Shown here piece by piece: positions 1-30,728 of a stretch of 40,501 bases of DNA; the stretch's first letter is position 1; each line of letters opens with the position of its first letter. Source of the stretch: Tepidisphaerales bacterium (lineage in GTDB: Bacteria > Planctomycetota > Phycisphaerae > Tepidisphaerales > Tepidisphaeraceae); contig JBBSLV010000001.1 of assembly GCA_038233535.1 (NCBI GenBank), positions 1 through 40,501 on the forward strand, given 5' to 3'. Below the pieces are notes generated by a model. The model searched no databases, had not been told where the DNA came from, and worked only from the letters and a program-made list of their open reading frames with translations. The position numbers and the translations under genes were made by a program.

Positions 1-1262
1 AGCTCAAGGCCCGTCGCGACCGTACCGCCGTCATCGATCAGCTCAACCAGCTCGCGGCGGGCAACGCGCTGCGCCCGCTGGAATCGCCCAGCCCCGACGC
101 GTCGGCCGTCACCAGCGCGATGAACGAGCTTGTCGCCGTCGCCGAGCGCGCCGTGTCCGATGCGGCGCTGAAGGTCAAGGAAATCGAGATTCAGCTCAAG
201 GTCGCCACCGCCCAGCGCCAGCACGCCCAGGCGATCATCTACAGCATTTCCGACGCCGTGCTCGTCACCGACCCGTTCGATGACCTCGTGCTCGCCAACG
301 AGTCCGCCGCCCGCACGTTCGGCTTCGACCTGGACAAGGTCGGCCGCTCCCCGATCGACCGCGTGCTGTCGGATGAGAAGGTGGTGGAGATGATCCGCGA
401 GATGCGCCAGAGCGACACGCGCGGCGGCCGGCGCATCGTCGAGCACAAGGTGAAGACGCATCTGGGCGATCGCACGTTCAAGATCACGCTCTCGTGCGTC
501 AACGATCAGCGCGAGCAGCCCGCCGGCGTCGTCGCCGTTTTGCACGACATGACGAAGGAGAAAGAGGTCGCGGAGATGAAGAACGACTTCGTCTCCAACG
601 TCTCCCACGAGCTGCGCACCCCGCTGGCCAGCATCAAGGCGTACGTCGAGATGCTCATCGACGGCGAGGCCGACGACGAGAAGACGAAGCGCGAGTTCTA
701 CGACGTCATCCAGAACGAGGCCAACCGGCTGTCGCGCCTGATTGACAACATCCTGAACATCAGCCGCATCGAGTCCGGGCTCGTGAAGATCAACAAGCAG
801 CAGCAGAGCGTCGCCGTGATTCTCAAAGAAGCGCTCGAGGTGATCGCCCCGCAGGCCAGGAGCAAGCAGATCACGGTGAAGGACCAGCTCCCGCCCGTGT
901 TTTATCAGACGGTCGCCGACCGCGACATGCTGTACCAGGCGGTGCTGAACCTCCTGAGCAACGCGGTGAAGTACACGCCCGAAGGCGGCGAGATCGCGGT
1001 TGTCACGCACGTCGACGAGGGCAAGAAGAAGATCATCACCCGCATTTCCGACACAGGCGTCGGGATTCCACCCAAGGACCTGCCGTTTGTGTTCGATAAG
1101 TTCTACAGGGCCGAAGCGAACAACCGCATGGCCAAGGGCACGGGGTTGGGGTTGTCGCTGGTGAAGCACATTGTCGAGACGGTCCACAAGGGCCGGATCT
1201 TCGTGGAGAGCCAGGCGGGCAAGGGCAGCTCGTTCGGGTTTGAACTGGACTTATGTGAGTGA
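1..1262 (+). CDS. Sensor histidine kinase (PAS-like input, HisKA, HATPase_c); 5' end lies outside the window
   Basis: Frame 3 is open from nt 3 to the TGA at 1260-1262; track ORF 120..1262 only marks the first internal ATG. H-box SHELRTPL, N-box LLSNAVKYT, G-boxes DTGVGI and GTGLGLS are read in the translation. Confidence 0.9.
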   Translation, partial: LKARRDRTAVIDQLNQLAAGNALRPLESPSPDASAVTSAMNELVAVAERAVSDAALKVKEIEIQLKVATAQRQHAQAIIYSISDAVLVTDPFDDLVLANESAARTFGFDLDKVGRSPIDRVLSDEKVVEMIREMRQSDTRGGRRIVEHKVKTHLGDRTFKITLSCVNDQREQPAGVVAVLHDMTKEKEVAEMKNDFVSNVSHELRTPLASIKAYVEMLIDGEADDEKTKREFYDVIQNEANRLSRLIDNILNISRIESGLVKINKQQQSVAVILKEALEVIAPQARSKQITVKDQLPPVFYQTVADRDMLYQAVLNLLSNAVKYTPEGGEIAVVTHVDEGKKKIITRISDTGVGIPPKDLPFVFDKFYRAEANNRMAKGTGLGLSLVKHIVETVHKGRIFVESQAGKGSSFGFELDLCE

Positions 1263-1269
1263 GCGGGAG

Positions 1270-1352
1270 AGTTGCCAGTTGTTAGTTGCCAGTTGCCAGT
1301 GAAGGCAAGAGGCATTTTCTTACTGGCAACTGGCAACTAACAACTGGCAACT
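1270..1352. repeat. Long hairpin: perfect 31-bp stem of tandem AGTTGCC heptamers, 21-nt loop
   Basis: 1270-1300 (agttgccagttgttagttgccagttgccagt) is the exact reverse complement of 1322-1352. It starts 7 nt after the kinase stop and ends 7 nt before the next ATG. No U-tract follows. Confidence 0.95.
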
Positions 1353-1359
1353 GAGCACC

Positions 1360-1746
1360 ATGAACGAACGAACCATCCTTGTCGCCGACGACGAAACGCA
1401 CATCCTGCACGTCGTGTCGCTGAAGCTGAAGAACGCGGGGTATCGCGTGCTCACCGCCCGCGACGGGCAGGAAGCGCTGGAGCTGGCGCAGCAGGAGAAG
1501 CCGGACCTGCTTATCACGGATTATCACATGCCGCAGCTCAATGGAATTGAGCTGTGCCGCCGGCTGAAGCTGGATCCGGCGACGTCGCACATCCCGGCCA
1601 TTATGCTGACGGCGCGGGGGTACGAGCTGGAGCCGGCGGATACCGAACAGAGCGGGATCCTGCGGATGCTGAGCAAGCCGTTCAGCCCGCGCCACCTGCT
1701 GTCGACGGTCGAAGAAGTGTTGGCGGGCGCGGGCGCCGCTGCCTAA
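1360..1746 (+). CDS. Single-domain response regulator (CheY-like receiver)
   Basis: 128 aa. N-terminal acidic pair in ILVADDE, phospho-acceptor context LLITDYHMP, conserved KPF near the C-terminus. No output domain. Confidence 0.9.
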   Translation: MNERTILVADDETHILHVVSLKLKNAGYRVLTARDGQEALELAQQEKPDLLITDYHMPQLNGIELCRRLKLDPATSHIPAIMLTARGYELEPADTEQSGILRMLSKPFSPRHLLSTVEEVLAGAGAAA

Positions 1747-1787
1747 GCACAGTTGCATCGCTCGGGGGCTACGCGAGGACGTTTCAG

Positions 1788-3518
1788 ATGTTGAAGTTGA
1801 CGGACAAGCCAGTCGCCGCCGCCGATCCTGCGAAGGACAGCGCTGCCCCCGCGCCCGCGGTGGTCGCCCCGGCGGCGCTGCCGGTCGCGGTGCTGGACAA
1901 CCTCGCCGCCCGGTTCCGTCCCGGGGGGCTGTTCCTGTTGATGCTCCGTCCCGACGGCTCGGTCGCGTATCACGACGCCGGCGGGGGTCTGTTCTTCCAG
2001 CGGTTCGTGCTCCCCATGATCCAATACGCCGACGCCGTCGACCAGGGGCTTCGCCAGAAAGTCGTCGCGCTGGGCGCCGGCGCAACGGTTGAAGCGTGGA
2101 ACGTGCTGCCGGGCGTCACTGTCGCCGCGTTCCCGTACGTCGTGAAGCGCGCCGTGGCCGGCGTGGTGCTCATCGCGGGCAAGAGCGCGTCGTTCCGGTT
2201 GGGCGAGGACGTCGTCCGCGTCTGCTCGCGACTGGGCATCGACGGCATCTGGCTTAACCAGCAGGCCGAGATGCTTTCCACCTACAACGACGAAACCGTC
2301 CTCCGCCAGGCGCGGCTGCTGCACGGCATGATTCGCGACCAGGTGCGGCTCTCCGCTCTCGAGCAGGAGCTTGACAGCCTCTCCGGGCAGTTGGCCAACA
2401 CGTACGAAGAACTGAGCCTGATCTACCAGATCAGCGGCGGAATGAAGATCAACCGCCGGGCCGGCGATTTCTTTAAAGGCGCATGCATCGAAGTCATGGG
2501 CGTGATGAATGTCCGCGGGATGGGCGTGTCGCTCGTCAGCGGGGTGCACCAGTCGGAGCCCGTGCTCTACGGAAGCCTCAGCCTCCCCCCGGGAAAGGTG
2601 CACCGGCTGGCCAGTGAGCTGACGCGCCTGCTCGCCACCAAGAAAAGCCCGCTGCTCATTAACGACCTGCACCGCGACCCGAAGATCTTCGTCTGGCTCG
2701 CCGAATACGCCAAAAGCCTGATCGCCGTCCCGCTCATGCGGCAGGACCAACTGCTGGGCGTGATGTTCGGCATCGACAAGACAACGGGCGGGGAGTTCGA
2801 CTCCGTCGACAGCAAGCTGCTGAACTCGATCGCCAACGAGTCGGCGATTTACCTCGAGAACGCCAACCTGTTCGAGGACGTTCACGGGTTGATGATGGGC
2901 CTCCTGCACAGCCTCACCAGCGCGGTCGATGCCAAGGACGCTTACACCTGCGGCCACTCCGAGCGCGTCGCGCTGCTCAGCCGCCACCTTGCCCAGCACG
3001 CCAGGCTCACCGACCACGAGGTCGAGCGCGTGTACATGGCCGGGTTGCTTCATGACGTGGGCAAGATCGGCGTGCCCGAAGCGGTGTTGCAGAAGACCGG
3101 CAAGCTCACGCCCGAGGAATTCGAGCAGATCAAGAAGCACCCGGAGATCGGCGCCCGCATCCTCCAGGACATCAAGCAGATTCGCGACATCATCCCCGGC
3201 GTGCTGCATCACCACGAGCGCTACGACGGCAAGGGCTACCCCGCGGGGCTTGCCGGCGCGGACATCCCGCTCATGGGGCGGATCATCTGTTTGGCCGACT
3301 GTTTCGACGCGATGACCAGCAGCCGCACGTACCGCAAGGCGCTGCCGCTGGAAGTGGCGCTGGCGGAAATCCGCCGCTGCTCGGGCACGCACTTTGACCC
3401 GCGGATGAGCGAGGCATTCTTGCAGATCAGCGCCGATCAGCTCCGCGAGCTGATCCGCAATCACCAGGAACAAACCAAAAAGCTGGCCGAAATGACCCAG
3501 ACGCTGCGGGCCGCATAA
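1788..3518 (+). CDS. GAF-domain / HD-GYP-domain protein (c-di-GMP phosphodiesterase family)
   Basis: HDVGKIGVP and HHHERYDGKGYPAGL motifs; GAF-like segment ending LIAVPLMRQDQLLGVMFG. Start placed at ATG 1788 (MLKLTDKP) because track start 1554 lies inside the receiver gene in another frame. Confidence 0.85.
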   Translation: MLKLTDKPVAAADPAKDSAAPAPAVVAPAALPVAVLDNLAARFRPGGLFLLMLRPDGSVAYHDAGGGLFFQRFVLPMIQYADAVDQGLRQKVVALGAGATVEAWNVLPGVTVAAFPYVVKRAVAGVVLIAGKSASFRLGEDVVRVCSRLGIDGIWLNQQAEMLSTYNDETVLRQARLLHGMIRDQVRLSALEQELDSLSGQLANTYEELSLIYQISGGMKINRRAGDFFKGACIEVMGVMNVRGMGVSLVSGVHQSEPVLYGSLSLPPGKVHRLASELTRLLATKKSPLLINDLHRDPKIFVWLAEYAKSLIAVPLMRQDQLLGVMFGIDKTTGGEFDSVDSKLLNSIANESAIYLENANLFEDVHGLMMGLLHSLTSAVDAKDAYTCGHSERVALLSRHLAQHARLTDHEVERVYMAGLLHDVGKIGVPEAVLQKTGKLTPEEFEQIKKHPEIGARILQDIKQIRDIIPGVLHHHERYDGKGYPAGLAGADIPLMGRIICLADCFDAMTSSRTYRKALPLEVALAEIRRCSGTHFDPRMSEAFLQISADQLRELIRNHQEQTKKLAEMTQTLRAA

Positions 3519-3521
3519 GAA

Positions 3522-3604
3522 CAGTTGCCCGTTGGTAGTTGCCAGTTGCCAGCAAGGCGGCGGCTTCTCCCCACTGGCAACTCACAACTATCAACTGGCA
3601 ACTG
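3522..3604. repeat. Long hairpin of the same AGTTGCC-heptamer family (about 27/31 bp paired)
   Basis: 3522-3552 pairs with 3572-3604 (4 mismatches by hand alignment). It starts 3 nt after the HD-GYP stop and ends 3 nt before ATG 3608. Confidence 0.9.
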
Positions 3605-3607
3605 TTT

Positions 3608-3946
3608 ATGTCGATTAAGTGTGAAGAGTACAACCAGGTCTGCGTGATCGCCCCGGCGGGAGACTTCGTCGCCGAGAACAGTGCGCAAGCGCGCAAGGCC
3701 GTCGAGATGCACATCGACGCGAAGCAGATCGTCAACTTCGTCGTCGACTTCGAAAAAGCCGGCTTCGTCGACAGCGAGGGGCTTGAAACCCTCCTGTGGA
3801 TCAAGCGCAAGGCCGAGGAGCTCTTCGGCCAGGTGAAGCTCGTCAACCTCGACGAAAACGTCCACAAGATCCTCGAGATCACAAGGCTCGAACATCGGTT
3901 CGAATGTTTGCCGGACCTGGCGGCGGCGTTGAAGACAATGAGGTGA
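3608..3946 (+). CDS. STAS-domain protein (anti-sigma-factor-antagonist family)
   Basis: 112 aa; VVDFEKAGFVDSEGLETLLWIKRK resembles the STAS core. Start at ATG 3608, since upstream residues of track ORF 3539 only translate the hairpin. Confidence 0.75.
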   Translation: MSIKCEEYNQVCVIAPAGDFVAENSAQARKAVEMHIDAKQIVNFVVDFEKAGFVDSEGLETLLWIKRKAEELFGQVKLVNLDENVHKILEITRLEHRFECLPDLAAALKTMR

Positions 3947-3952
3947 GGAAGA

Positions 3953-4030
3953 AGTAGGCAGCGGGCAGTAGGCAGTAGGCAGGAACGCAATCCGCCCTCT
4001 CTGCCTACTGCCTACCGCCTACTGCCTACT
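3953..4030. repeat. Long hairpin of tandem GTAGGCA heptamers (27/30 bp paired, 18-nt loop)
   Basis: 3953-3982 pairs with 4001-4030. It starts 6 nt after the STAS stop and ends 4 nt before ATG 4035. Confidence 0.92.
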
Positions 4031-4034
4031 GATT

Positions 4035-5744
4035 ATGATTGCCACGCTCCAACGAAAACCTCTCGGCCAACTGCTGCTTGCCAGGGGCTTGGTCAAGCCC
4101 GAGCAGCTCGAGCGCGCGTTGGACGAGCAGCGGCGGAGCAACCACCAGAAGCTGCTGGGCGAGGTTCTCGTCGAGCTGCGCATCTGCACCGAAGACCAGA
4201 TCACCGAAGCGCTCGCCCAGGCGTACGGCGTGCCTTACGCGCGGGTGAGCCCGAAGATCGCCGACCCCAAGGTCATCTCCGTCCTCCCCAAGGAATTCCT
4301 CGAGAAGCACCAGGTTCTCCCGCTGTTTCTCGTCGAAGGGTTGCTCACCGTCGCCGTCCCCGAGCCGGCCAACGTCTTTTTGCTCGAAGAGATCGAGCGA
4401 CTCAGCGGCTACCAGGTGCAGGTCGTCGCCGTCACGACGCGCGACATCAAGGCGACCCTCCAGGCGTATCTCCCCAACGACAAAGTGTTCGTCATCGACG
4501 ACATCATTGAGGAGGTCCAGCCCGAAGACTTCGCCTTGATCGAGACGACCGCCAAGGTCCAGGACATCGCGAACCTGGAGATGGCGGCGGGGGACTCGCC
4601 GGTCATCAAGCTGGTCAACTACGTGATCTTCAACGCCGTGAAGGAAGGCGCGTCCGACATTCACATCGAGCCCGGCGACGGCTACCTCCGCGTCCGCTAC
4701 CGCATCGACGGCCGGCTCACGGAAAAGCTCCGCCCCCCACACCAGATGGCCGCCGCCGTCACCAGCCGCATCAAGATCATGGCGCAGCTGGACATTTCCG
4801 AGCGCCGCCTCCCGCAGGACGGGGGCATTCACGTGATGATGGACAAGCGCCCGATCGATCTGCGCGTCAGCACCATGCCGGGCAAGCACGGCGAGAAGGT
4901 CGTCGTCCGCGTGATCGACAACGACAAGGCCAGCGTCAACCTCGAGAAGCTCGGCTTCGGCTACGACACGCTCAAGCAGTGGCGCAAGCTGATCGCGCTG
5001 CCCAACGGCATCGTCCTCGTCACCGGCCCGACCGGCAGCGGCAAGAGCACGACGCTCTATGCCGTGCTTCAGGAGCTTAACAGCGACGACACGAACATCT
5101 GCACGGTCGAGGATCCCGTCGAGTACGCGCTGAGCGGCGTGAACCAGTTCCAAGTGAACGAGAAGGCCGGCGTCGGTTTTCCCAACGCGCTGCGGGCGCT
5201 GTTGCGGCAGGATCCGGACATCATGATGGTCGGCGAAATCCGCGACGCCGAGACCGCCAAGCTCGCCACCCAGGCGGCCCTCACCGGGCACCTGGTCCTC
5301 AGCACGCTGCACACGAACGACGCGCCCGGCGCCATCACGCGGCTGTTCAACCTCGGCATCGAGCCATACCTCGTCGGCGCGACCGTCGCCGGCGTGCTGG
5401 CGCAGCGGCTGGTCCGCAAGCTCTGCCAGAACTGCCGCGAGGCGTACGAGCCGTCACCGAACGAAAAGCGCCAGATGGAGCGCCTCGCTGGCGAGGTCCA
5501 GACGCTCTACCGCCCCAAGGGCTGCTCGCGCTGCCGCAACCTCGGATACGTCGGGCGGATCGGCATTTACGAGCTGTTCGTCCCCGACGACGGGATGGTT
5601 GACCGCATCAGCCAGGGCGCGAACCTCAACGAGATCCGCCAGATGTCCAGGGACTCGGGGATGAAGACCCTGCGCGTCGACGGCACGGAAAAGGTCAAGG
5701 CCGGGATCACGACGTTGGAAGAAGTGTATCGAGCGACGACTTGA
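4035..5744 (+). CDS. GspE/PilB/MshE-family secretion or pilus ATPase with a T2SSE_N (MshEN-type) N-terminal domain
   Basis: Walker A GPTGSGKST, Walker B region DPDIMMVGEIRD, His box GHLVLSTLHTND, tetracysteine CQNC...CSRC. The N-terminus carries the LGxxLLxxGLVxxxxLxxxLxxQ motif. Confidence 0.92.
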   Translation: MIATLQRKPLGQLLLARGLVKPEQLERALDEQRRSNHQKLLGEVLVELRICTEDQITEALAQAYGVPYARVSPKIADPKVISVLPKEFLEKHQVLPLFLVEGLLTVAVPEPANVFLLEEIERLSGYQVQVVAVTTRDIKATLQAYLPNDKVFVIDDIIEEVQPEDFALIETTAKVQDIANLEMAAGDSPVIKLVNYVIFNAVKEGASDIHIEPGDGYLRVRYRIDGRLTEKLRPPHQMAAAVTSRIKIMAQLDISERRLPQDGGIHVMMDKRPIDLRVSTMPGKHGEKVVVRVIDNDKASVNLEKLGFGYDTLKQWRKLIALPNGIVLVTGPTGSGKSTTLYAVLQELNSDDTNICTVEDPVEYALSGVNQFQVNEKAGVGFPNALRALLRQDPDIMMVGEIRDAETAKLATQAALTGHLVLSTLHTNDAPGAITRLFNLGIEPYLVGATVAGVLAQRLVRKLCQNCREAYEPSPNEKRQMERLAGEVQTLYRPKGCSRCRNLGYVGRIGIYELFVPDDGMVDRISQGANLNEIRQMSRDSGMKTLRVDGTEKVKAGITTLEEVYRATT

Positions 5745-5749
5745 GGAAT

Positions 5750-5818
5750 AAGGATGAGGGATGAGGGATGAGGGGATGAATCAGTCGTTTCATCCCTCAT
5801 CCTTCATCCCTCATCCTT
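5750..5818. repeat. Long hairpin of tandem GGATGAG heptamers (about 30-bp stem, 8-nt loop)
   Basis: 5750-5780 pairs with 5789-5818 (one mismatch, one bulge). It starts 5 nt after the ATPase stop and ends 9 nt before ATG 5828. The right arm is the exact reverse complement of 39582-39611. Confidence 0.92.
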
Positions 5819-5827
5819 CGACTACCC

Positions 5828-7066
5828 ATGCCCACATTCGCCTACTCAGCCCGTGACAGTTCCGGCGCGCTCGTGAACGGGACGCTGCTTGCCGCTTCGG
5901 TGGCCGAGGCGTCGAAGGCGCTGCGCGCCGAGGGTAAGTACCCGACGGCGGTGCATCCCCTCAACGAGGCGGCCGCCGCGGCCGCGTCCGCCCACGCCGA
6001 CGGGAGCGGGCAATCGGTCCCCAACGTTAAGATCACGCGCGATGACGTCATTCAATTCTCGACGCAACTGGCGATCATGGTCGAGACCGGCGTCACGCTC
6101 AGCGAAGCGCTCGACTGCATCGCCACCCAGACCGAGCGCCCGAACGTCAAGAAGCTCATCGCCGACGTCGCCCGCCAGGTGCAGGGCGGCGCGGATTTCA
6201 GCGCCGCGCTGGCGCGGCACCCGCGGAGCTTTCCCCGGCTGTACGTCGCGCTGATCAAGGCCAGCGAGAAAAGCGGCATGATGTCCAAGCTGCTCATCCG
6301 CGCCAACACGTACCTCAAGGACGAGGCCGAGATCCTCCGCAAGGTGAAAGGCGCGCTGACCTACCCGGGCATCATGCTCGCGTTCGCGACGACCACGACG
6401 ATCTTCCTGCTCGCGTTCGTGCTCCCCAAGTTCACCGGCATCTACGCCGGCAAGGGCGCCGCCCTCCCCGTGCCGACGAAGGTTCTGATGAACCTCAGCG
6501 GCTTCCTCGTCGGCCACTGGATGGCCATCATCGCGGGGCTGTCGACGCTGGCGGTGCTGGGTTACCTCTACTTCACGACCGAAGGGGGGGCGCGCGTGGG
6601 GCATTGGATCCAGATCAACGTCCCGATGATCGGCAAGATGTTCCGCAAGCTGCACCTGGCCCGCACGCTGCGCATGGTGGGCACGATGGCCGGCGCGGGG
6701 GTCAATCTCATCGACGCGGTCCAGACAGCGCAGGATTTGTGCGGCAACACGTACTATCGCGAGCTGTGGGGTAAGGTCTCGGAGCAGATCCAGGCCGGAA
6801 AGCAGCTCTCCGAGCCGCTGTTCGCCAGCCCGCTCGTCCCGCGCGGCATTTCCCAGATGCTCCACAGCGGCGAAAAAAGCGGCAAGCTCGCCAGCGTGAT
6901 GGAACAGGTCTCCGGCTACGCCGAGCAGGAGCTGAAGGAGCAAATCGCCGAACTGACCCGCTATATCGAACCGGCCATGATCATCATCATGGGCTTGATC
7001 ATCGGCGGCGTCGCGCTGGCGCTGCTGCTCCCGATCTTCACGATGAGCCGCGTCGTCGCGAGCTGA
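5828..7066 (+). CDS. GspF/PilC-family inner-membrane platform protein
   Basis: 412 aa with two repeated T2SSF-like halves and hydrophobic segments (TYPGIMLAFATTTTIFLLAFVLP, IEPAMIIIMGLIIGGVALALLLPIF). Immediately downstream of the ATPase. Confidence 0.88.
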   Translation: MPTFAYSARDSSGALVNGTLLAASVAEASKALRAEGKYPTAVHPLNEAAAAAASAHADGSGQSVPNVKITRDDVIQFSTQLAIMVETGVTLSEALDCIATQTERPNVKKLIADVARQVQGGADFSAALARHPRSFPRLYVALIKASEKSGMMSKLLIRANTYLKDEAEILRKVKGALTYPGIMLAFATTTTIFLLAFVLPKFTGIYAGKGAALPVPTKVLMNLSGFLVGHWMAIIAGLSTLAVLGYLYFTTEGGARVGHWIQINVPMIGKMFRKLHLARTLRMVGTMAGAGVNLIDAVQTAQDLCGNTYYRELWGKVSEQIQAGKQLSEPLFASPLVPRGISQMLHSGEKSGKLASVMEQVSGYAEQELKEQIAELTRYIEPAMIIIMGLIIGGVALALLLPIFTMSRVVAS

Positions 7067-9163: not shown

Positions 9164-10903
9164 ATGTCATCACCGCTTCGCCCATTGATTTCGGGTCTCG
9201 CATGCGTCGCGTTGCTCGCCGCCGCGCCGGTCGCGCGGGGGGAACCGTGGCGGTTCAAGGAAGAATTTCGTCCGCATCTCATTAAGGCCGTCCCCACGAT
9301 CCTCGCGCAGCAGGACAAGCAGACCGGCCGGTTCGGCACGGGCATCTGGATCGTCCGGGATCAGGAACTGATGTACCCGCTCGCTGCGGCCTGGAGCGTG
9401 AACCATCCCGACAACCCGCACTATCAAAGCAAGGAGCTTCTCGACGCGGTCATGGTGGCCGGGGATGCGCTGATCGAAGACCAGGACGCGAAGGGGATGT
9501 GGGTTTTCCGAAAGAAGGACGGGTCGACCTGGGGCGACATCTACATGCCCTGGACTTATTCGCGATGGATTCGCACGTTTGACCTGATCAAGGACGCCAT
9601 GCCGCCCCAGCGGCGAGTTCGGTGGGAGCGAGCGCTGACGCTCGGCTTCGAGGGCATCGCGCGACAGGAATTGAAGCACATTCACAACATCCCCGTGCAC
9701 CACGCGATGGCACTATATCACGCGGGCAAGGCGATGGATCAACCAAAGTGGTCGGAGCAGGCGACGGCGTTCATGAAGAAGGTGGTTCAGTCGCAGGATC
9801 CCGGCGGGTTCTGGTCCGAAGGCGAAGGCCCGGTCGTGGGGTACAACATTGTCTATGTCGATTCGATCGGCGTGTATTTCGCGCTGAGCGGCGACGAAAG
9901 CGTTCTCCCCGCGCTGAAGAAGGCTGCTGATTTCCATTCGAATTTCGTCTATCCCGACGGCACCGCCGTCGAGACCATCGATCAGCGCAACCCGTATCAC
10001 GCCGTCTCCCCGGTGCTGAACGTGGGATTCACGTTCACGCCGGCCGGTCGCGCTCATCTCCGCCGGCAGTGGGAGAAGGTCAAGGCCGGCGGCGAGGGCA
10101 TCAGCGCCGATGGCGCCGCTTCGATGTGGCTCTACGGTCGGGAAGGCGAGCAAGCCCCGCCCCCCGCCGACGGAGCAAGCTTTGTCATTGGCGATAACGA
10201 CGCGATGGTGAAGCGCCAGGGGCCGTGGTTTGCCTGTCTCTCGGCGTATACCGCGCCCGTCCCCACGTCGCGATGGATTCAGGATCGCCAGAACTTCCTC
10301 AGCCTCTACCACGACTCGGCCGGCGTTTTTCTCGGCGGGGGGAATACGAAGCTCCAGCCGCTGTGGAGCACGTTCACCGTCGGCGACGTGTCGCTGCTCA
10401 AGCACAAGCCGGGTGACGAGAACCCCACCTTCACCCCGCCGAAGGGAATCGTGCACGTGCCGACATCAGCGACGCTCGACCCGGAGACGGCGTCGCTGGT
10501 CCTCGACTACGACGGCGCCGCGTGCGCCGTGCAGGTCGATCTGTCGAATCCTGACGCGGCCCGCGTCACGTACAAGGTCATGACCACGCCCACGCGGCCC
10601 GTCGAAGCGCACGTCACGCTGTTGCCGCGCATGAAGACGGTCTGGCGGACCGCATCGGGCAAGTCCGGCAAGCTGACCGCCCAGCCGATCAACCTCGGCC
10701 CCGGGGAAGCGGGCGAGTGGATCGAGCACCACGGCGTTCGCGTCTTACTCCCGCCGCAGGCGCGCATCACTTGGCCCGTCCTCCCGCACAACCCCTACAC
10801 GAAAGACGGCCACGCCGACGCGAACGAAGGCAGGATCGTCATCACGCTCCCGTTCTCGCCGGACCTGCTCAAACACGAGCTGGTGATCGAGGTAGCAGAG
10901 TAG
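9164..10903 (+). CDS. Secreted protein of unknown function; possibly a polysaccharide lyase-like (alpha/alpha toroid plus beta-sandwich) enzyme
   Basis: Signal peptide MSSPLRPLISGLACVALLAAAPVARG; GGAGGAAGA upstream of ATG 9164 (track start 8996 rejected). The functional guess rests only on composition (W/H/Y-rich helical N-half) and the neighbouring uronate genes. Confidence 0.6.
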   Translation: MSSPLRPLISGLACVALLAAAPVARGEPWRFKEEFRPHLIKAVPTILAQQDKQTGRFGTGIWIVRDQELMYPLAAAWSVNHPDNPHYQSKELLDAVMVAGDALIEDQDAKGMWVFRKKDGSTWGDIYMPWTYSRWIRTFDLIKDAMPPQRRVRWERALTLGFEGIARQELKHIHNIPVHHAMALYHAGKAMDQPKWSEQATAFMKKVVQSQDPGGFWSEGEGPVVGYNIVYVDSIGVYFALSGDESVLPALKKAADFHSNFVYPDGTAVETIDQRNPYHAVSPVLNVGFTFTPAGRAHLRRQWEKVKAGGEGISADGAASMWLYGREGEQAPPPADGASFVIGDNDAMVKRQGPWFACLSAYTAPVPTSRWIQDRQNFLSLYHDSAGVFLGGGNTKLQPLWSTFTVGDVSLLKHKPGDENPTFTPPKGIVHVPTSATLDPETASLVLDYDGAACAVQVDLSNPDAARVTYKVMTTPTRPVEAHVTLLPRMKTVWRTASGKSGKLTAQPINLGPGEAGEWIEHHGVRVLLPPQARITWPVLPHNPYTKDGHADANEGRIVITLPFSPDLLKHELVIEVAE

Positions 10904-12421: not shown

Positions 12422-12500
12422 AACCGCAGATGAACACAGATGAACGCAGATAAAAATTGAAGTGGTTTTCATCTGTGTTCATCTGTGTTCATCTGCGGTT
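12422..12500. repeat. Long hairpin of tandem GATGAAC(A/G)CA 10-mers (29/30 bp paired, 19-nt loop)
   Basis: 12422-12451 pairs with 12471-12500. It lies between two co-directional genes. Confidence 0.92.
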
Positions 12501-13874: not shown

Positions 13875-15398
13875 ATGTCGATGAATTTCTTCGAATTTCG
13901 CGAAAAGCTGACGGCGCGGCGCGATGAGGCGCCCGCCCCCGCACCGATGGAAGCGGCGCACGGGTCGCCGGCGCCCACGCCGCTTAGCGTCACGCAGCTC
14001 ACCGCGCAGATCGACCGCGCGATCAAATCCGGCGTTCCCGGCAGCGTGCTCGTGAAGGGCGAGGTCAGCAACTTCAAGGAGCACCGCGGCTCCGGGCACC
14101 TGTACTTCACGTTGAAGGACGCATCGTCGTGCCTTGCGTGCGTGATGTGGAAGAGCGATGCCGAGCGGGTGAAGTTCGATGTGCGCGATGGGATGGAGCT
14201 CCTCGCCACCGGGCGCGTGGCGGTCTACGCGACGCAGGGGAAGTACCAACTGTACGTCACGCGGCTTCAGCCGCTGGGGCAGGGGGCGCTGGAGCTGGCG
14301 TTCAGGCAACTGCACGCGCGACTCGAAGCGGAAGGGCTTTTCGCGCTCGAGCGGAAAAGGCCGCTGCCGACGTACCCGTCGCGCATTGCCCTCGTCACCG
14401 GCCGGGGGACGGCGGCGATTCAGGACATGCTCAAGGTGCTCGGGCGCTACCCGTGGGTGCGGCTGTGCATCGTGAATGTCCCCGTCCAGGGCGACGGCGC
14501 TGCCGAGAAGATCGCCGACGCCCTCATGCGCCTCAGCCGGACCGGCGCGCGCTGCGGCAGCGTCCACGTCATCCTCCTCGGTCGCGGCGGGGGGTCGCTG
14601 GAGGATTTGTGGGCGTTCAATGAGGAAATTGTCGCCCGCGCGATCGCTGCGTCGCGCATTCCCGTCATCACCGGCATCGGCCATGAGGTCGACACGTCGA
14701 TTGCCGACCTGGTCGCCGATTATCACGCGCATACACCCACGGAAGCGGCGCAGGTCGCGGTGATGCACTGGCGGAAGGCGGGCGCCGACATCGAAGCGCA
14801 CGCAGGGCGGCTGCACCGGTCGGTGCGCGGGCTGGTGCACGACGCCCGGCGGCGGCTGGCGATGGTCGAGCGGCACGAAACGTTCCGCCGGCCGCGCGAT
14901 CGGGTGGACCAATTGCGGCAACTGCTCGACGACCGCCAGCGCTCGTTGCAGGCCGCCGCCGAAGGATTGGTGCAGCGCCTCCGGCAGCGCCTCGCGACGA
15001 CCGAGCAGGGGCTGGCGGTCGCCGGCAATGAGCGGCTGCGCCGGGACCGGGAAAAGCTCGCGCGGATGACCGTCGCGCTCAGCGAGCGTCACCCCCGGCA
15101 CGCCGCCGGTCTCGCCAGGGCGCACGTCGCGGCGCTGGATGCGCGGCTGAGCGCCGTCATGTCCAACAGCCTCAAGCGGCAGACGCTGAAAATCGACCTG
15201 CTCGCGCGACACCTCATCGCCGTCGGTCCCGAACAAGTCCTCCAGCGCGGCTACTCGATCACAACGCTGAAAAAAGGCCGAAAGGTCGTGCGTTCGGCTG
15301 ACCAGGTGCAACCCGGCGACCGGCTCGTCACGCGGCTTGCCGACGGGAAGATCGAATCGACGGCCGAGGATCAGAACCAGCCCGGTCTGTTCGAGTAA
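13875..15398 (+). CDS. xseA: Exodeoxyribonuclease VII large subunit
   Basis: OB-fold start LSVTQLTAQIDRAIKSGVPGSVLVKGEVSNFKEHRGSGHLYFTLKD, catalytic region ITGIGHEVDTSIADLVAD, long helical C-terminus. Confidence 0.9.
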   Translation: MSMNFFEFREKLTARRDEAPAPAPMEAAHGSPAPTPLSVTQLTAQIDRAIKSGVPGSVLVKGEVSNFKEHRGSGHLYFTLKDASSCLACVMWKSDAERVKFDVRDGMELLATGRVAVYATQGKYQLYVTRLQPLGQGALELAFRQLHARLEAEGLFALERKRPLPTYPSRIALVTGRGTAAIQDMLKVLGRYPWVRLCIVNVPVQGDGAAEKIADALMRLSRTGARCGSVHVILLGRGGGSLEDLWAFNEEIVARAIAASRIPVITGIGHEVDTSIADLVADYHAHTPTEAAQVAVMHWRKAGADIEAHAGRLHRSVRGLVHDARRRLAMVERHETFRRPRDRVDQLRQLLDDRQRSLQAAAEGLVQRLRQRLATTEQGLAVAGNERLRRDREKLARMTVALSERHPRHAAGLARAHVAALDARLSAVMSNSLKRQTLKIDLLARHLIAVGPEQVLQRGYSITTLKKGRKVVRSADQVQPGDRLVTRLADGKIESTAEDQNQPGLFE

Positions 15399-16113: not shown

Positions 16114-16266
16114 GGGAGCCACAGAGGCACAGAGACACAGAGGCCCGCTCGTGATTGCGACGCGTTGTTTCAGAACGTCGTCCTATGCCGAGTTAAGATG
16201 GGCCACTCTCTGTGAGTGGCGCGGCACGTCGAGCACGCCTCTGTGCCTCTGTGGCTCCCTGTTTTT
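16114..16266 (+). other. Long-range hairpin (21-bp perfect stem of CACAGAG repeats, 104-nt interior) followed by a T-run; candidate structured RNA or orphan terminator
   Basis: 16114-16134 (gggagccacagaggcacagag) is the exact reverse complement of 16239-16259, followed by tgttttt. The interior holds smaller hairpins (gccactc/gagtggc). No plus-strand CDS lies upstream. Confidence 0.5.
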
Positions 16267-16289: not shown

Positions 16290-16457
16290 CGCCTGCGATT
16301 GTGGACCGTTGCGCTTCGATCACGAACGGCTGCGCTTCAATCGTGAACCGTTCCGCTTCAATCGTGAACCGTTCCGCTTCGATCGCAAACCGTTGCGCTT
16401 CGATCGCGAACGGTTGCGCAGTGATCGCGAAGCGCTGCACTTCACTCGCGAACGCAG
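16290..16457. repeat. Head-to-tail array of about 8 copies of a 21-bp unit (consensus GCGCTTCGATCGCGAACCGTT)
   Basis: Units read at 16290, 16311, 16332, 16353, 16374, 16395, 16416 and 16437. 16353-16373 differs from 16332-16352 at one base. There are no spacers. Confidence 0.9.
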
Positions 16458-23129: not shown

Positions 23130-23264
23130 ATGCAAAATGAAAGAAAGCCGTCTCTCCCGCAGCGCGCCGGCGCGATCGGCAAGGCACTGATCGTTTGGCT
23201 CGCCAGCGGGAGCTTTGTCGTTGCCATTATTGCCTTCTTTGTCTTCAGCGCGATGGGCTGCTAA
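23130..23264 (+). CDS. Possible 44-aa single-pass membrane peptide (below the ORF-track cutoff)
   Basis: ATG 23130 has GGAG 8 nt upstream. Translation MQNERKPSLPQRAGAIGKALIVWLASGSFVVAIIAFFVFSAMGC; the stop is followed 16 nt later by a 25-bp hairpin. Confidence 0.35.
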   Translation: MQNERKPSLPQRAGAIGKALIVWLASGSFVVAIIAFFVFSAMGC

Positions 23265-23280
23265 GCCACTGCATCCTCTT

Positions 23281-23348
23281 TCATAGCCGCAGGCGGAAGC
23301 CGCGGGCTTCCGACGCATGAAGACCGCGGCTTCCGCCTGCGGCTATGA
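23281..23348. repeat. Perfect 25-bp inverted repeat with an 18-nt loop (REP-like or terminator-like)
   Basis: 23281-23305 (tcatagccgcaggcggaagccgcgg) is the exact reverse complement of 23324-23348. Each arm also contains a local palindrome (ggaagccgcgggcttcc). Confidence 0.9.
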
Positions 23349-23427
23349 AACAAGGAAATTCGCGCGCCCTACCCATTCCCCGTGCGCCCGCATATCGTCC
23401 CCCGTCTAACCGGAGACGGGTGTTTCC

Positions 23428-28212: not shown

Positions 28213-28713
28213 GTGATTGAGACTTGGCAGGGCCAGACGGTTTCCTTCTTCCGCCGCACCATTTGGCAGCAGCTTGGCAAGATCGTTCGGCTCGCGGAGC
28301 GTGGGGAAGTCTACGCCAGCGGCGTGAAAGACCATGCGACAGCGCTGCACGCGCAGTTCTCACGGGACGCAGCCGGGGCCGACGACTATTTGCCGATCCA
28401 AACGTACCTCGTGCCGACGCAACAGAAGATCAATCCCGTTGCCGCCGCGCTGGACCGCTTGAAGGGCATCTGCAAAAGCAGCGCTGAGTCATACCTCAGA
28501 ACACTTGCCGCCGAGCTTGAGCTAAGCGCCAGCAGCCCTACGCCGACGATCCTCACCGAGCTTGCAGCGCGGATGAACGCGAGCAGCGGGACCATCGCAC
28601 CGAGCGGCAAATTCTTCTCGTGGTTCCGCGACGAGTTCGCATTCACCAGCTTCCCGCAGGCCGAGCCGCCCGCGATCCCCGACTCGTTTATCACCACTAC
28701 CATCATCGCTTAG
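28213..28713 (+). CDS. Hypothetical protein (islet gene 1)
   Basis: High GC3 in this frame by hand inspection. GTG 28213 or ATG 28186 are possible starts. The stop lies 13 nt before the next gene, which has an AGGAG. No motif recognised. Confidence 0.45.
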   Translation: MIETWQGQTVSFFRRTIWQQLGKIVRLAERGEVYASGVKDHATALHAQFSRDAAGADDYLPIQTYLVPTQQKINPVAAALDRLKGICKSSAESYLRTLAAELELSASSPTPTILTELAARMNASSGTIAPSGKFFSWFRDEFAFTSFPQAEPPAIPDSFITTTIIA

Positions 28714-28726
28714 CGCAGGAGCACCA

Positions 28727-29246
28727 ATGCCAGCAGTCGGATTCAGCTTGGACGCGGCTCAGAGAATTGCCGCCGCCGTCCGCAAGGTCGAACGCCAGCC
28801 CATGGACCTCATAGGCGAGCGGACACACGCCGCGCCGAGTGAGGCGTCATGCTGGGGCTATCTCTTGTCAACCATCTTGGCGGGCACACATTGGAGTTGG
28901 CTCAAGCTCGTGCCCGCCGCGAAGCTGCCGAACGCCGAGGAGCCGTTCGCACCGACCGAATCAGAGCGACCGCTTTTCGACTTGGCATCCCCGACATTTT
29001 TCAGTGAGCACACAGCCCGCGAAGCGAACGGCAACGAGGCGATTGAGGCGGCACCGTCGTTCTGCTCACTTCATCGGCTACGACTCTGAGCAGGAGCCGG
29101 TGTACGTATTCCAGTACGGCGTGCCCCAGCCCGATCCGGGGCTAATCAGGCTTCACGACCACCGAGATAACGTCACAGGCCGCGGGTTCGCCTTCGCCTG
29201 CTATCACAGCGGCACCGGACTCCCGCAGCAACCGTGGCACGTCTGA
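28727..29246 (+). CDS. Hypothetical protein (islet gene 2); reading frame switches near 29055-29075
   Basis: ATG 28727 lies 5 nt after AGGAG. Frame A (MPAVGFSLDAAQRIAAAVRKVE...) stops at 29089. A second frame stays coding-like (FIGYDSEQEPVYVFQYGVPQPDPGLIRLHDH...) to 29246. Confidence 0.4.
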
Positions 29247-29278
29247 GCCCACGCCGACAATCTTGTTCCTTTACCCCC

Positions 29279-29326
29279 CCCCCGGCGACGTACCTCTCAC
29301 GCTCATGTTCGCCGGGGGTTTTGTTT
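29279..29326 (+). terminator. Hairpin plus T-run between the convergent islet genes
   Basis: cccccggcga (29279-29288) pairs with tcgccggggg (29309-29318) around a 20-nt loop, followed by ttttgttt. Confidence 0.5.
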
Positions 29327-29763
29327 CACGACTTCTTTTCAACGGGATAGACGCGGTGATGAGGATCCCACCAGACCACGAAGAAGGTTGAATCTTCTCG
29401 AAGCCCCCACAGTCGGCGCGTGCCCGACAACCGCAGTGAGAAAAGCTGATCCACATCGTCGAGTTTGATTGCCACGAGTCGATTCTTTGCCTCTTGCGGC
29501 AGGCGGCTGACGCTGATCCAGTGATTCATGCTGGCTTCGCGTTCGATTTCAGCCCAGGTTCGTCGCGAGTTGTCGCGGAGGTATTTTGTCCCTTCGAGGA
29601 ACAGATCATCTTCGTACGATCCATCCTCCTTCTTCCATGCGACCGAATCGAAAAGGGCAAAGTTCCAGATTGGCCGCGCAGTCTGAGCCAGCGCAGGAAC
29701 CAGCACGCGGGGCCGTTTGCGTGTATCGACCTGCTCAGCGATGCGCGGCTGTTTCCTGCCCAT
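29326..29763 (-). CDS. Unknown 145-aa protein translationally coupled to the Panacea-domain gene; candidate toxin (PanT-like)
   Basis: Its start codon overlaps the upstream stop (TGATG at 29761-29765). About 53% GC by hand count on one line. C-terminal LFSLRLSGTRRLWGLREDSTFFVVWWDPHHRVYP. I recognise no family. Confidence 0.6.
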   Translation of the reverse strand: MGRKQPRIAEQVDTRKRPRVLVPALAQTARPIWNFALFDSVAWKKEDGSYEDDLFLEGTKYLRDNSRRTWAEIEREASMNHWISVSRLPQEAKNRLVAIKLDDVDQLFSLRLSGTRRLWGLREDSTFFVVWWDPHHRVYPVEKKS

Positions 29764-30218
29764 CAGACCCCAGCAGCCGCAACGCCGCTGTAATACTCTT
29801 GCATTGAGGGGAGGGTGATTTCGTGGTTGCCCCGATCATCGGGAGCAAGCCCGACGCGAGCCTCTTGCCAAGGGCGTTCAGCGTGCGTGAGTTGGCTTAG
29901 CTCATAGCCTTCTTTGTGGCCGTAGAACTGGATGACCGAGTCGATGGTCTCGCGGGCATCCTGATCGAGGGCGGCAGGATTAGCTCGAAGGGAGCCGGGG
30001 GCGACATCGAACTGACCCCGGCGAGCCTCGTACAACTCGCGCACGACCGGCCCGCCAATCCACGCCTCGATCTTCTCGTGGAAGAGCGCGCGATCATCCC
30101 AAACCAGCGACCAAGCCTGGGCGTAGTAGACCACCTTTTGCAGCTTCATGGCCGACATCGGGCCAAGCCGCTGCAAGATGTAATCCGCCACGTCGAAAGC
30201 TGAGTAGTTCGTGGTCAT
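29763..30218 (-). CDS. Panacea-domain (DUF4065, SocA/GepA/PanA-like) antitoxin candidate
   Basis: ADYILQRLGPMSAMKLQKVVYYAQAWSLVWDDRALFHEKIEAWIGGPVVRELY matches the Panacea/DUF4065 core (KLQKLLYY...W..GPV...VY). ATG 30218 is preceded by GAGAGGAA. Confidence 0.8.
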   Translation of the reverse strand: MTTNYSAFDVADYILQRLGPMSAMKLQKVVYYAQAWSLVWDDRALFHEKIEAWIGGPVVRELYEARRGQFDVAPGSLRANPAALDQDARETIDSVIQFYGHKEGYELSQLTHAERPWQEARVGLAPDDRGNHEITLPSMQEYYSGVAAAGV

Positions 30219-30236
30219 CCGTTCCTCTCGCACCCC

Positions 30237-30267
30237 ATTATACGGTATTCATCGGGGCTTTGTTCAA
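30237..30267 (-). promoter_or_regulatory. Sigma-70-like promoter for the PanA operon (TTGAAC-N19-TATAAT)
   Basis: On the minus strand, TTGAAC is at 30267-30262 and TATAAT at 30242-30237. The -10 lies 18 nt upstream of ATG 30218. Confidence 0.45.
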
Positions 30268-30574
30268 GTCCGAGGAGCAAATCCGGTAATGAGGAAGGCC
30301 GCAGCCGAAGGCCACGGCCCGATTGCCCGCCTGCATCGTCGACGCTCACGCTCGCGGCGCCACGCTCCGGCAGTTCCGGCACCGCCAAACCTTCTGTGTC
30401 TTGCCGCCCATGCCGAGAGCACGTCAGGCGGACGGCACGAGCGGCAAGGCTCCTGCGGGGCGTTCTGAGCGACGAGGCGCGGCGGGAAGGATCATCGCAG
30501 CCCCGGCCAGGCACCGGGCGCGCCAGCGAGGCCAGCGAGCGATGCACAAACTCACTCGGTCTCAGTCGCATTGC

Positions 30575-30650
30575 CCGCAAAGTCAGTCGGTTTGTCCGCA
30601 AAGTCAGTCGGTTTGTCCGCAAAGTCAGTCGGGCGACTGTCCGCAAACTG
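30575..30650. repeat. Tandem 21-bp repeat (ccgcaaagtcagtcggtttgt), about 3.5 copies
   Basis: Copies at 30575-30595 and 30596-30616 are identical. 30617-30637 diverges at its 3' end. A partial copy lies at 30641-30650. The array is about 80 nt from the tRNA 3' end. Confidence 0.88.
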
Positions 30651-30728
30651 CGGCCGAGCGGCGAAAAACGGCACCAAAAACAGACGGCCCTCGCCGGTGA
30701 GGCAAAGGGCCGTAAGTGCTTGAGCAAG

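Follow-up and report, generated by a model that had tools for sequence, protein, structure and literature searches.

Long heptamer-built hairpins in the gaps of a conserved operon of a Tepidisphaerales bacterium are probably copies of a dispersed palindromic repeat class

The gaps between the genes of a conserved six-gene operon of a Tepidisphaerales bacterium harbor four long hairpins, which are built from tandem heptamers and fill the space between stop and start codons nearly completely. The operon lies in a stretch of 40,501 nt of a GC-rich genome (64.5%; contig JBBSLV010000001.1, assembly GCA_038233535.1, positions 1-40,501), which is called the window throughout and WIN in comparisons with other genomes. 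It encodes a histidine kinase (HK), a receiver (RR), a GAF-HD-GYP protein, a STAS protein, a GspE/PilB-type ATPase, and a GspF/PilC-type platform protein (Table 1). The four hairpins are probably copies of palindromic repeats that occur lineage-wide in the Tepidisphaeraceae, resemble the STRR and TAACTGA repeats of other bacteria, and are primarily a DNA-level phenomenon of selfish or neutral nature. The elements form a dispersed, lineage-specific and fast-evolving class, their arrays slip, and they are dispensable to the operon. A selected role on the RNA level, putatively in translational coupling, RNase III processing or 3' stabilization, is possible. The class itself is already known; its presence in the phylum Planctomycetota is new, as is the fact that long and nearly perfect pairs of arrays predominate.

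The genes of the cluster were identified with Pfam, and the start codons at the four junctions were set by the N-termini that are conserved in relatives. A sequence-only reading of this DNA had described four hairpins that fill the HK/RR, HD-GYP/STAS, STAS/GspE, and GspE/GspF gaps, and the coordinates and folds confirm this, with stems of 25-33 bp that by themselves reach -52 to -64 kcal/mol. The hairpin at 1270-1352 has a perfect stem (31 of 31 positions paired), a loop of 21 nt, and arms of the type (AGTTGCC)n, in which one unit is the variant AGTTGTT; its fold has a free energy of -65.5 kcal/mol (z -11.3). AGTTGCC units also make up the arms of the HD-GYP/STAS hairpin, which in its extended form (3520-3606) has arms of 33 nt that are 88% complementary, folds with -55.7 kcal/mol, and makes up essentially all of the 89-nt gap. 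The third hairpin (3953-4030) is built from AGTAGGC (GTAGGCA) units, with arms of 30 nt, 90% complementarity and -58.7 kcal/mol, and the fourth (5750-5818) from GGATGAG units, with arms of 25-28 nt, 96% complementarity over 25 nt and -54.8 kcal/mol. For z-scores, each hairpin was compared with 200 dinucleotide shuffles, folded with a few flanking bases. The four free energies (-54.8 to -65.5 kcal/mol) correspond to z-scores of -7.6 to -11.3, and 0 of the 200 shuffles were as good. Repeat units and periods were determined with Tandem Repeats Finder, which detected a period of 7 in 8/8 arms. None of the four stems is followed by a T-tract, and a terminator scan called none of them terminator-like; the earlier description of the stems as tandem 7-mers without a U-tract therefore stands. 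The RR/HD-GYP gap (41 nt) is the only gap of the cluster without a hairpin; it contains a single AGTTGC unit at 1751-1756, perhaps a remnant or a seed.

It had also been supposed that the hairpins are a feature of this particular cluster, which turned out to be too narrow. The window contains 11 hairpins, four in the cluster and seven more outside of it. They are found in co-directional, convergent and divergent gaps and at one coding site, within pyrK, which rules out that they are special to the HK-GspF cluster. Arms of 25 nt or more are present in ten hairpins, versus a mean of 0.01 expected from 100 dinucleotide-preserving simulations of the window, and 10 of the 11 elements lie outside of gene interiors. 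Hairpins are present in 4 of the 5 cluster gaps, compared to about three of roughly nine other co-directional gaps of the window by our count.

Relatives were retrieved with the GspE protein as query, the six proteins were then mapped on each locus, and the gaps were measured; L-numbers denote the related loci and contigs that were compared with the window. The same six-gene cluster was found in 80 Planctomycetota genomes. The nearest relatives are metagenome-assembled genomes of Tepidisphaeraceae, with amino acid identities of 96% (L001), 91% (L002), and 86% (L003 and L004). In most of the 80 operon-bearing relatives the genes are separated by spacers of -4 to 40 nt that contain no structure. 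Therefore, the hairpins are dispensable for the cluster, and the ancestral operon was tight and probably translationally coupled. Where hairpins occur, they are sporadic and occupy different junctions in different lineages. The sequence outside of the stem in hairpin-bearing gaps has a median length of 14.5 nt (interquartile range 11-23), which is close to the median of 18.5 nt (interquartile range 11-33) of the hairpin-free gaps. A hairpin gap is thus a short spacer plus a hairpin, and this explains most of the edge-to-edge appearance. The gene order of the operon is kept from the Tepidisphaeraceae to the Planctomycetaceae and Isosphaeraceae (L001-L080). In many of these loci the HD-GYP and STAS genes overlap by 4 nt, and in L045, L048, L052, L055, L062, L064, L068, and L073 gspE and gspF are parted by an insertion of ~1.1-1.4 kb.

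The turnover of the elements at the junctions is fast. Over 6.4 kb of coding DNA, WIN, L001, and L002 share 84-87% identity and align cleanly as far as each stop codon and then once more from the following ATG; the gaps in between are unalignable, and the repeat units differ. The HD-GYP/STAS hairpin consists of AGTTGCC units in WIN and of the 8-mer GGAGTGAC in L001, and L002 has the same 8-mer in common with L001. The units at STAS/GspE are GTAGGCA in WIN, AGTTGYT in L001, and GGAGTGAC in L002, and at GspE/GspF they are GGATGAG in WIN, AGTTGCT in L002, and CATTGAG in L003, with a plain hairpin in L001. At HK/RR a GGTTTGA element is common to L003 and, in a decayed form, L001, and WIN and L002 carry other elements. 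Half-elements, of which only the 3'-arm array beside the start codon is present, were found in L011, L024, L025, and L033. The sequence-only reading had held that the structure is kept and the sequence is not. This applies across WIN, L001, L002, and L003, but not to the two AGTTGCC hairpins within the window, which are paralogous copies; similarly, the inspection of orthologous gaps that it had proposed revealed hairpins with changed units in L001, L002, and L003, but hairpin-free gaps in most of the 80 relatives. L003 also contains another dispersed palindrome with the non-tandem core GGGAAGTGACCCC, present in two copies (9419-9543 and 14350-14407 of that locus). One of them is a perfect 33-bp stem that fills the HD-GYP/STAS gap, so that other palindrome families occupy the same junctions.

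Within the species, the arrays slip by single units, and over a coding divergence of ~14% they are replaced. Five contigs of the same species from independent assemblies, with a STAS protein identical to that of the window and 99.4-100% nucleotide identity, contain the same hairpins apart from two single-unit losses: one AGTTGCC unit (7 nt) is missing from the 5' arm of the HD-GYP/STAS hairpin in L081, and one AGTAGGC unit (7 nt) from the 5' arm of the STAS/GspE hairpin in L083. In addition, one Watson-Crick pair is restored in L081, where a G is replaced by an A. The possibility of an assembly artefact is ruled out by the identical hairpins in five independent assemblies (JGI, Logan, NCBI). 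Three of the same-species contigs, assembled from short reads (L082, L084, and L085), end inside the STAS/GspE hairpin.

Several elements at unlinked positions are related copies. The hairpins at 1270 and 3520 are paralogues with the same unit order, a variant second unit that is mirrored in the 3' arm, and partly similar loops, and the hairpins at 5750 and 39582 are paralogues that have the arms and the first apical bases in common. The elements at 12422 and 35128 share CAGATGAAC arms and a GATAAA apex with the GspE/GspF hairpin of L005, which is a different locus. At least 120 stretches with three AGTTGCN units were found in metagenomes, and many high-GC contigs among them fold as hairpins; 69 paired arrays were counted in high-GC loci. 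In the window together with 89 unselected loci, 7 is the commonest short tandem period, with 118 arrays versus 74 of period 6 and 96 of period 9. The arrays of period 7, 8 or 10 in this set comprise 33 inverted pairs (66 arrays) versus 116 unpaired arrays. Signs of remodelling are frequent: chimeric 5'/3' arms occur in L110 and L118, the units form a gradient along the arrays of L104 (GGGGCTA > GGTGCTA > GTTGCTA) and L119 (AGTTGCT > AGTGGCT > AGGTGCT), the array of L162 contains five successive unit variants, and the arms of L023 are very unequal, with 4.5 units versus ~10.

Threefold AGTTGCN arrays are also present on 53 stretches of predicted viral contigs (IMG/VR, L210-L262), 39 of which have a GC content of at least 55%; they include four hairpins with the usual arm order and one with the reversed order. 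It may be that these contigs are prophages, host DNA that was misclassified, or a vector by which the arrays spread. No target-site duplications or flanking direct repeats were found around the elements that were inspected in the window and its relatives, which is a small sample, and none of the 34 window proteins scanned with Pfam matched Y1_Tnp, the domain of RAYT-type transposases. Only a tRNA exceeded the gathering thresholds of Rfam in the window. A permissive Rfam search returned only eukaryotic miRNA-precursor models with 20-42 bits compared to cut-offs of 58-100, on both strands, which are generic matches to long hairpins.

As the sequence-only reading had supposed, the placement of the hairpins relative to gene boundaries is strongly non-random. 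In 41 cases with a callable stop codon the hairpin starts at a median of ~3 nt past the stop, in about three quarters of them within +/-9 nt, and the first repeat unit often includes part of the stop codon. Between the 3' arms of the four cluster hairpins and the ATG there are 1-9 nt. The arms also have a fixed order. An AGTTGC array lies 5' of a GCAACT array in 17 cases, and the reverse was observed once. CAG is present only in the 5' arm in 39 pairs and only in the 3' arm in 2 pairs, numbers that include duplicates and pattern-selected loci; when distinct units are counted, our tally of the listed rows is ~16 to 1-2. Because a palindrome reads alike on both strands, this polarity is intrinsic to the elements. 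Among unpaired arrays of this family, those whose AACTG reading faces a start codon or leads away from a stop outnumber the opposite orientation by 18 to 7, based on approximate gene calls. In the window, the (AACTGGC)n 3' arms next to an ATG have the direction of TAACTGA repeats, and the 5' arms next to a stop codon have the reverse direction.

A Shine-Dalgarno sequence between stem and start codon is absent in most gaps with heptamer hairpins. Of 31 structured gaps, 6 have such a motif in the 5' flank only, 9 in the 3' flank only, 3 in both flanks, and 13 lack it, while 61 of 111 hairpin-free gaps have one 3-13 nt before the start. Motifs on the 5' side are suggestive at HK/RR of WIN, HD-GYP/STAS of L001 and L002, GspE/GspF of L002, and in L018. 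However, a split Shine-Dalgarno arrangement, in which a 5' motif is brought to the AUG by the fold, was rejected as a general rule, because only 6 of the 31 gaps have the motif solely at the 5' side. An RNA-optimised structure was dropped, too. The 41 structured operon gaps contain 116 G-U pairs on the sense versus 99 on the antisense strand, and the sense strand is the more stable one in 25 and the antisense strand in 15 gaps, but neither asymmetry is significant. Thus, the palindromes look symmetric at the DNA level. The idea of a telomere-like addition of a G-rich strand was abandoned because the excess of G over C in the 5' arm, counted by distinct unit, is only 19 to 8, with 7 neutral units, and therefore too weak.

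The copy within pyrK, which encodes the electron-transfer subunit of dihydroorotate dehydrogenase (open reading frame 35940-37160, probable start near 36102), shows that an element can be translated. It adds ~37 amino acids to the protein (…SGFRVQGSG…SSLNPEPRTL…). Two blocks of the window protein, residues 133-282 and 325-405, are matched by solved PyrK structures, which have only ~5 residues between them; this reveals an insertion of ~37 residues that coincides with the hairpin. Some homologues with 318 amino acids lack the insertion, and many others, orthologues from other Tepidisphaeraceae among them, contain '…SGFGVQGSG-variable-SSLNPEPRTL…', i.e., both arms are translated and the middle is hypervariable. 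The DNA of four insertion-bearing homologues (L086-L089) was folded, and orthologous hairpins were found at the same site.

For the reading as a dispersed, mostly selfish or neutral repeat class the following scenario is proposed. The arms, which mostly are microsatellite-like 7-mer arrays, would be the paired (inverted) form of the STRR and TAACTGA heptamers. Their complementarity could be kept by intramolecular templating, that is, by template switching of the quasipalindrome type. Slippage together with fold-back templating would homogenize the arms, and the elements would pile up where they leave coding sequence unharmed. The comparisons suggest that the ancestral operon spacers had only ~10-30 nt and that selection removes anything reaching into coding sequence, so that the arrays would come to abut, and at times to absorb, the stop codon. 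Their tolerance between co-translated genes may be due to a tightly folded stem being topologically silent. The closed stem would hold the stop codon, and in some cases also a stranded purine tract that resembles a Shine-Dalgarno sequence, at a distance of ~0-14 nt through space from the next start codon, and a ribosome terminating 1-7 nt before the stem would melt the stem base and then re-initiate. Such a bridging model predicts that a stem must be kept perfect or lost, and the observed near-perfect stems, half-elements, and empty gaps agree with this prediction. As putative, though plausible by-products, the stems may shield the RNA from 3' exonucleases and be cut by RNase III.

Several observations weigh against this reading. 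In WIN, L001, L002, and L003 the same four junctions have kept a hairpin in spite of the replacement of its sequence, which could reflect selection for a hairpin there, and the stems of orthologous L001 and L002 hairpins are far better conserved than the loop. The hairpins start 0-9 nt past the stop even when the gap on the other side is large (L123, L126, L151, L064), and this cannot be explained by insertion into short spacers. The pyrK hairpin is retained across species at 59-80% protein identity, and in L089 all units of both arms have changed from GGGTTCA/TGAACCC to GGGGTCA/TGACTCC, a concerted change from T:A to G:C. Neither a mobilising enzyme nor a target-site duplication was found, so that the term 'mobile' rests only on the multi-copy families, and the bridging of the stem base by the ribosome as the mechanism of tolerance is something that we only infer. 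The stem conservation between L001 and L002, the G-to-A change in L081, and the pyrK pattern hint that the pairing is preserved, for which selection or the templating of one arm by the other could be responsible.

If selection is the cause, the hairpins would be RNA-level cis-elements. The stem would hide the leader of the downstream gene, and only a terminating ribosome would open its base, resulting in strict translational coupling; in addition or instead, the stem could be an RNase III site or a barrier to 3' exonucleases that sets the stoichiometry of the gene products. The geometry (1-7 nt between stop and stem, 1-9 nt between stem and start), the frequent lack of a Shine-Dalgarno sequence between stem and start combined with GGAG, GGGAG or AGGAG motifs 5' of the stem in several gaps, and the adjacency to stop codons even in larger gaps would all be expected in that case, as would the persistence at the same junctions in four related genomes, the conserved L001/L002 stems, and the restored Watson-Crick pair of L081. 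The same roles have been proposed for the hupS-hupL STRR hairpin (PMC2670836) and for TAACTGA repeats (PMC4679880). However, most relatives with the same operon are hairpin-free, the same elements are present in divergent promoter regions, in convergent gaps, and inside pyrK, the sense strand is not favored in G-U pairs or stability, and the unit-number polymorphism within the species leaves the arms unequal. We regard a selected RNA-level function as possible, though not probable.

It appears rather unlikely that the hairpins arose locally at each site without any mobility. In that case, slippage would generate a microsatellite, a fold-back template switch would copy it in inverted orientation, and slippage and quasipalindrome correction would remodel it in place. 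The single-unit indels within the species, the unit gradients and chimeric arms described above, very unequal arms as in L023, the lack of visible target-site duplications and transposase genes, and the different units at the same site in sister genomes are in agreement with this view. It is at odds with identical units and similar unit order and apices at unlinked loci and in different genomes, with the occurrence of the same core heptamers in four phyla, and with the 17-to-1 polarity, because random fold-back duplication should yield both arm orders.

The far-reaching idea that the CAGTT/AACTG arrays of four phyla are one system with dedicated, so far hypothetical machinery, and that the Tepidisphaeraceae hairpin is a selected, ribosome-bridging form that serves coupling or processing, is unlikely in our view. 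The machinery could be an enzyme that generates or copies repeats, or a translation or RNA factor that recognizes them. If true, this idea would explain the polarity, with CAGTT-type units after stops and AACTG-type units before starts, and concerted evolution of the two arms, as seen in the pyrK copy, would keep the paired form intact.

Terminators or attenuators that lack a U-tract and act independently of factors, bidirectionally at convergent gene pairs and partially between the cistrons of the cluster, are very unlikely. The stems are very stable and adjoin stop codons, two copies (35128 and 38546) lie between convergent genes, and such a role has been considered for one Nostoc STRR hairpin (PMC2670836). 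The missing T-tracts and the negative terminator scan speak against termination, as do the copies inside pyrK and in divergent promoter regions; moreover, a conserved operon with ancestral spacers of a few nt or a -4 overlap implies co-transcription and coupling, and a row of four strong terminators would shut off gspE and gspF. Least credible are arrays of double-stranded heptamer half-sites for a regulator or nucleoid protein with merely incidental hairpin potential, because, in spite of CAGTT/AACTG cores that are conserved across loci and phyla and of binding proteins proposed for cyanobacterial heptamers (bioRxiv 10.1101/2022.06.06.494920), many unrelated units (AGTTGCC, GTAGGCA, GGATGAG, AGGGTTC, CAAGAAC, 8- and 10-mers) occur in one genome, a 7-bp spacing is out of helical phase, and the most prominent feature is the inverted arrangement of arms that are nearly perfectly complementary over 25-55 nt.

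The elements outside of the cluster (Table 1) differ in their units and in their relation to the neighboring genes. The arms of the element at 12422-12500 are 35 nt long and consist of the 10-mer CAGATGAAC(A/G), which can also be written CAGATGAACA. The element at 16114-16259 has a perfect outer stem of 21 bp and an interior of 104 nt; beside it, at 16305-16453, lie 7.1 copies of a 21-bp (3 x 7) tandem repeat, ACCGTTGCGCTTCGATCGCGA. The GC-rich hairpin at 23279-23350 has no periodicity, is located downstream of a possible small open reading frame (23131-23264), and possibly belongs to a different palindrome family or type. At 35128-35228 the repeat overlaps both convergent genes: the 5' arm begins with the clpB stop codon TAA (35128-35130), and the 3' arm includes the NUDIX stop codon (35206-35208) and the last ~7 NUDIX codons, so that the repeat supplies coding sequence as well as stop codons. 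The arms of the element at 38546-38663 have 55 nt, with CAAGAAC among their units. The element at 39582-39670 has GGATGAG arms of 30 nt and starts 3 nt past the psd stop codon. The only in-frame upstream ATG for pssA (39652) falls within its arm, and either the N-terminus of pssA is encoded by the repeat or a non-canonical start downstream of the stem is used.

Table 1. Genes of the operon and palindromic elements of the window (positions refer to the window)
Feature	Position	Strand	Context	Characteristics
Host operon HK-RR-GAF/HD-GYP-STAS-GspE-GspF	3..7066	+		conserved across Planctomycetota
Histidine kinase	ends 1262	+		Pfam HisKA/HATPase_c
Receiver (RR)	1360-1746	+		Pfam Response_reg
GAF-HD-GYP	1788-3518	+		Pfam GAF + HD_5; motif HHERYDGKGYP
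STAS	3608-3946	+		Pfam STAS
GspE/PilB-type ATPase	4035-5744	+		Pfam T2SSE
GspF/PilC-type platform	5828-7066	+		Pfam T2SSF
HK/RR hairpin	1270-1352		stop ends 1262, ATG 1360	7 nt from stop to hairpin, 7 nt from hairpin to start
HD-GYP/STAS hairpin	3522-3604, extendable to 3520-3606		stop ends 3518, ATG 3608	1-3 nt on either side
STAS/GspE hairpin	3953-4030		stop ends 3946, ATG 4035	6 nt from stop to hairpin, 4 nt from hairpin to start
GspE/GspF hairpin	5750-5818		stop ends 5744, ATG 5828	5 nt from stop to hairpin, 9 nt from hairpin to start
Element of the same class	12422-12500		uxaE (stop ends 12406) to next gene (ATG 12531)	-63.6 kcal/mol
Element of the same class	16114-16259		divergent intergenic region	8-mer GAGGCACA
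Palindrome without tandem arms	23279-23350		S49 peptidase gene to next gene	near-perfect 32 bp, -68.1 kcal/mol
Element of the same class	35128-35228		convergent clpB / NUDIX gene	10-mer GATGAACGCA arms
Element of the same class	36793-36911		in frame inside pyrK	AGGGTTC units
Element of the same class	38546-38663		convergent pyrD (stop ends 38519) / pssA (stop 38687-38689)	-84.8 kcal/mol
Element of the same class	39582-39670		minus-strand psd/pssA junction (psd stop 39674-39676)	-63.1 kcal/mol

A second 21-bp (3 x 7) repeat, TCAGTCGGTTTGTCCGCAAAG, is present in 3.4 copies at 30562-30632, ~100 nt from a tRNA-Val gene (30728-30802, minus strand). It lies in a stretch from ~28710 to 30720 that contains no open reading frame with the strong signal of the window in GC content at third codon positions and that ends at the tRNA-Val gene. 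The open reading frames tested in this stretch had no Pfam match, and it could be an island or a non-coding region.

The elements have practical consequences in that they break metagenome assemblies and can mislead the annotation of start codons and C-termini, as exemplified by pssA, the NUDIX gene, and pyrK. At the same time, rapid replacement at fixed junctions, a concerted change of both arms, and an in-frame coding copy make them a comparative system. That core units, stop/start polarity, and 7-nt slippage recur in a fourth distant phylum argues for a common mechanism rather than for accidents of single lineages, and in the phylum of the Tepidisphaeraceae the default form is a very stable hairpin. 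Real puzzles are posed by the polarity rule across phyla, by the replacement at fixed junctions, and by the concerted evolution of the pyrK copy.

The sequence-only reading had known of no described class with such properties, and this does not hold, as the STRR hairpin between hupS and hupL (PMC2670836) and the start-abutting TAACTGA repeats (PMC4679880) had already been published. The analogy that it had drawn to REP/BIME elements is apt, since these are dispersed intergenic palindromes in operon spacers, too. The mode of action that it had proposed, namely, action of a hairpin within an operon mRNA, corresponds to that of the Correia (NEMIS) and ERIC/IRU elements. Hairpins of these elements within operon mRNAs are RNase III substrates or modulators of mRNA stability. 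Correia and ERIC elements are miniature inverted-repeat transposable elements with terminal inverted repeats and a target-site duplication (TA for Correia), and their arms are not tandem; in contrast, the arms of the elements described here are tandem, and no target-site duplication was seen.

The pyrK copy resembles the Rickettsia palindromic elements, which, as reportedly described by Ogata et al. in 2000, are situated in frame in genes and, after translation, form an additional peptide in a permissive loop. The Rickettsia elements are non-tandem palindromes of 100-150 bp that belong to few sequence families. The peptide in PyrK is instead encoded by heptamer arrays (GFRVQGSG / SLNPEPRTL), and a single coding insertion was seen here.

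A REP in an operon spacer stabilizes the mRNA upstream of it, and translation is affected if the REP lies no more than ~15 nt from a stop codon. REPINs are inverted REP doublets that are predicted to form hairpins in single-stranded DNA or mRNA, and compensatory changes, decayed singlets, and insertion in or next to other copies have been reported (PMC3116915). They are the closest structural analogue among mobile repeats, and the similarities to the elements described here, which are structural only, include their nature as short, abundant extragenic palindromes, the inverted doublets with hairpins of roughly similar size, and the half-elements. However, each REP arm is an imperfect palindrome with a conserved 16-mer and has a cognate RAYT transposase, whereas the arms in the window are tandem repeats without an internal palindrome, belong to many unit families, and vary mainly by slippage of unit number.

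Heptamer (STRR) repeats have been known in cyanobacteria since 1990, and, to our knowledge, there still is no accepted function or origin for them. In filamentous cyanobacteria STRR mostly are 7-bp repeats that are able to form a hairpin, and one is present in the hupS-hupL gap of four strains; its function is unknown, and roles in transcript stability or translational coupling have been proposed (PMC2670836). Nostoc 7120 contains the repeats ttgtcagttgtcag (also given as ttgtcagttgtcagttgtca; 44 genomic copies) and ttgttagttgttag (PMC2408588 Table 3), the units of which, AGTTGTC and AGTTGTT, are also found in the window or its relatives. Common to both groups are dispersed intergenic 7-bp tandem units and the possibility of hairpins between co-transcribed genes. 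They differ in the hosts, filamentous cyanobacteria versus Planctomycetota, in the units, which are GC-richer here, and in the near-perfect inverted arms of 25-55 nt, which are frequent in the Tepidisphaeraceae set. The stems described here have free energies of -52 to -85 kcal/mol, compared to ~-10 kcal/mol for the STRR hairpin upstream of hoxW, the only energy given in that study (PMC2670836).

The TAACTGA repeats (MacGregor 2015) have been described for Beggiatoaceae, some Cyanobacteria, and Bacteroidetes and are mostly intergenic (PMC4679880). Most sets are 'forward' and thus directed at a start codon, the repeat stops 1 nt short of it in the largest class, and a ribosome-binding site is usually absent; some sets overlap upstream stop codons, reverse sets follow stops, and indels between strains occur in steps of 7 nt (PMC4679880). 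All of these features recur here: arrays that end one to a few nt before the start, 3' arms in the same orientation, a usually absent ribosome-binding site, overlap with stop codons, reverse copies after stops, and 7-nt indels between strains. Both also have the AACTG/CAGTT core, and in L117 the unit AGTTATC, which is contained in the complement of TAACTGA arrays, lies inside AGTTGCC arrays. With respect to the described unit cores, AGTTGCC, AGTTGTT, and AGTTGTC match, which covers two of the four cluster hairpins, while GTAGGCA has only CAGT and GGATGAG nothing in common with them. The term 'Planctomycet' is absent from PMC4679880, and the host extends the described range of Cyanobacteria, Beggiatoaceae/Chromatiaceae, and a few Bacteroidetes. 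The Beggiatoaceae genome contains 169 direct and 1 inverted TAACTGA sets, a single unit is dominant, and no RNA structure was predicted (PMC4679880). In contrast, the Tepidisphaeraceae have many unit families, and their direct arrays are commonly paired with the complement and form long hairpins.

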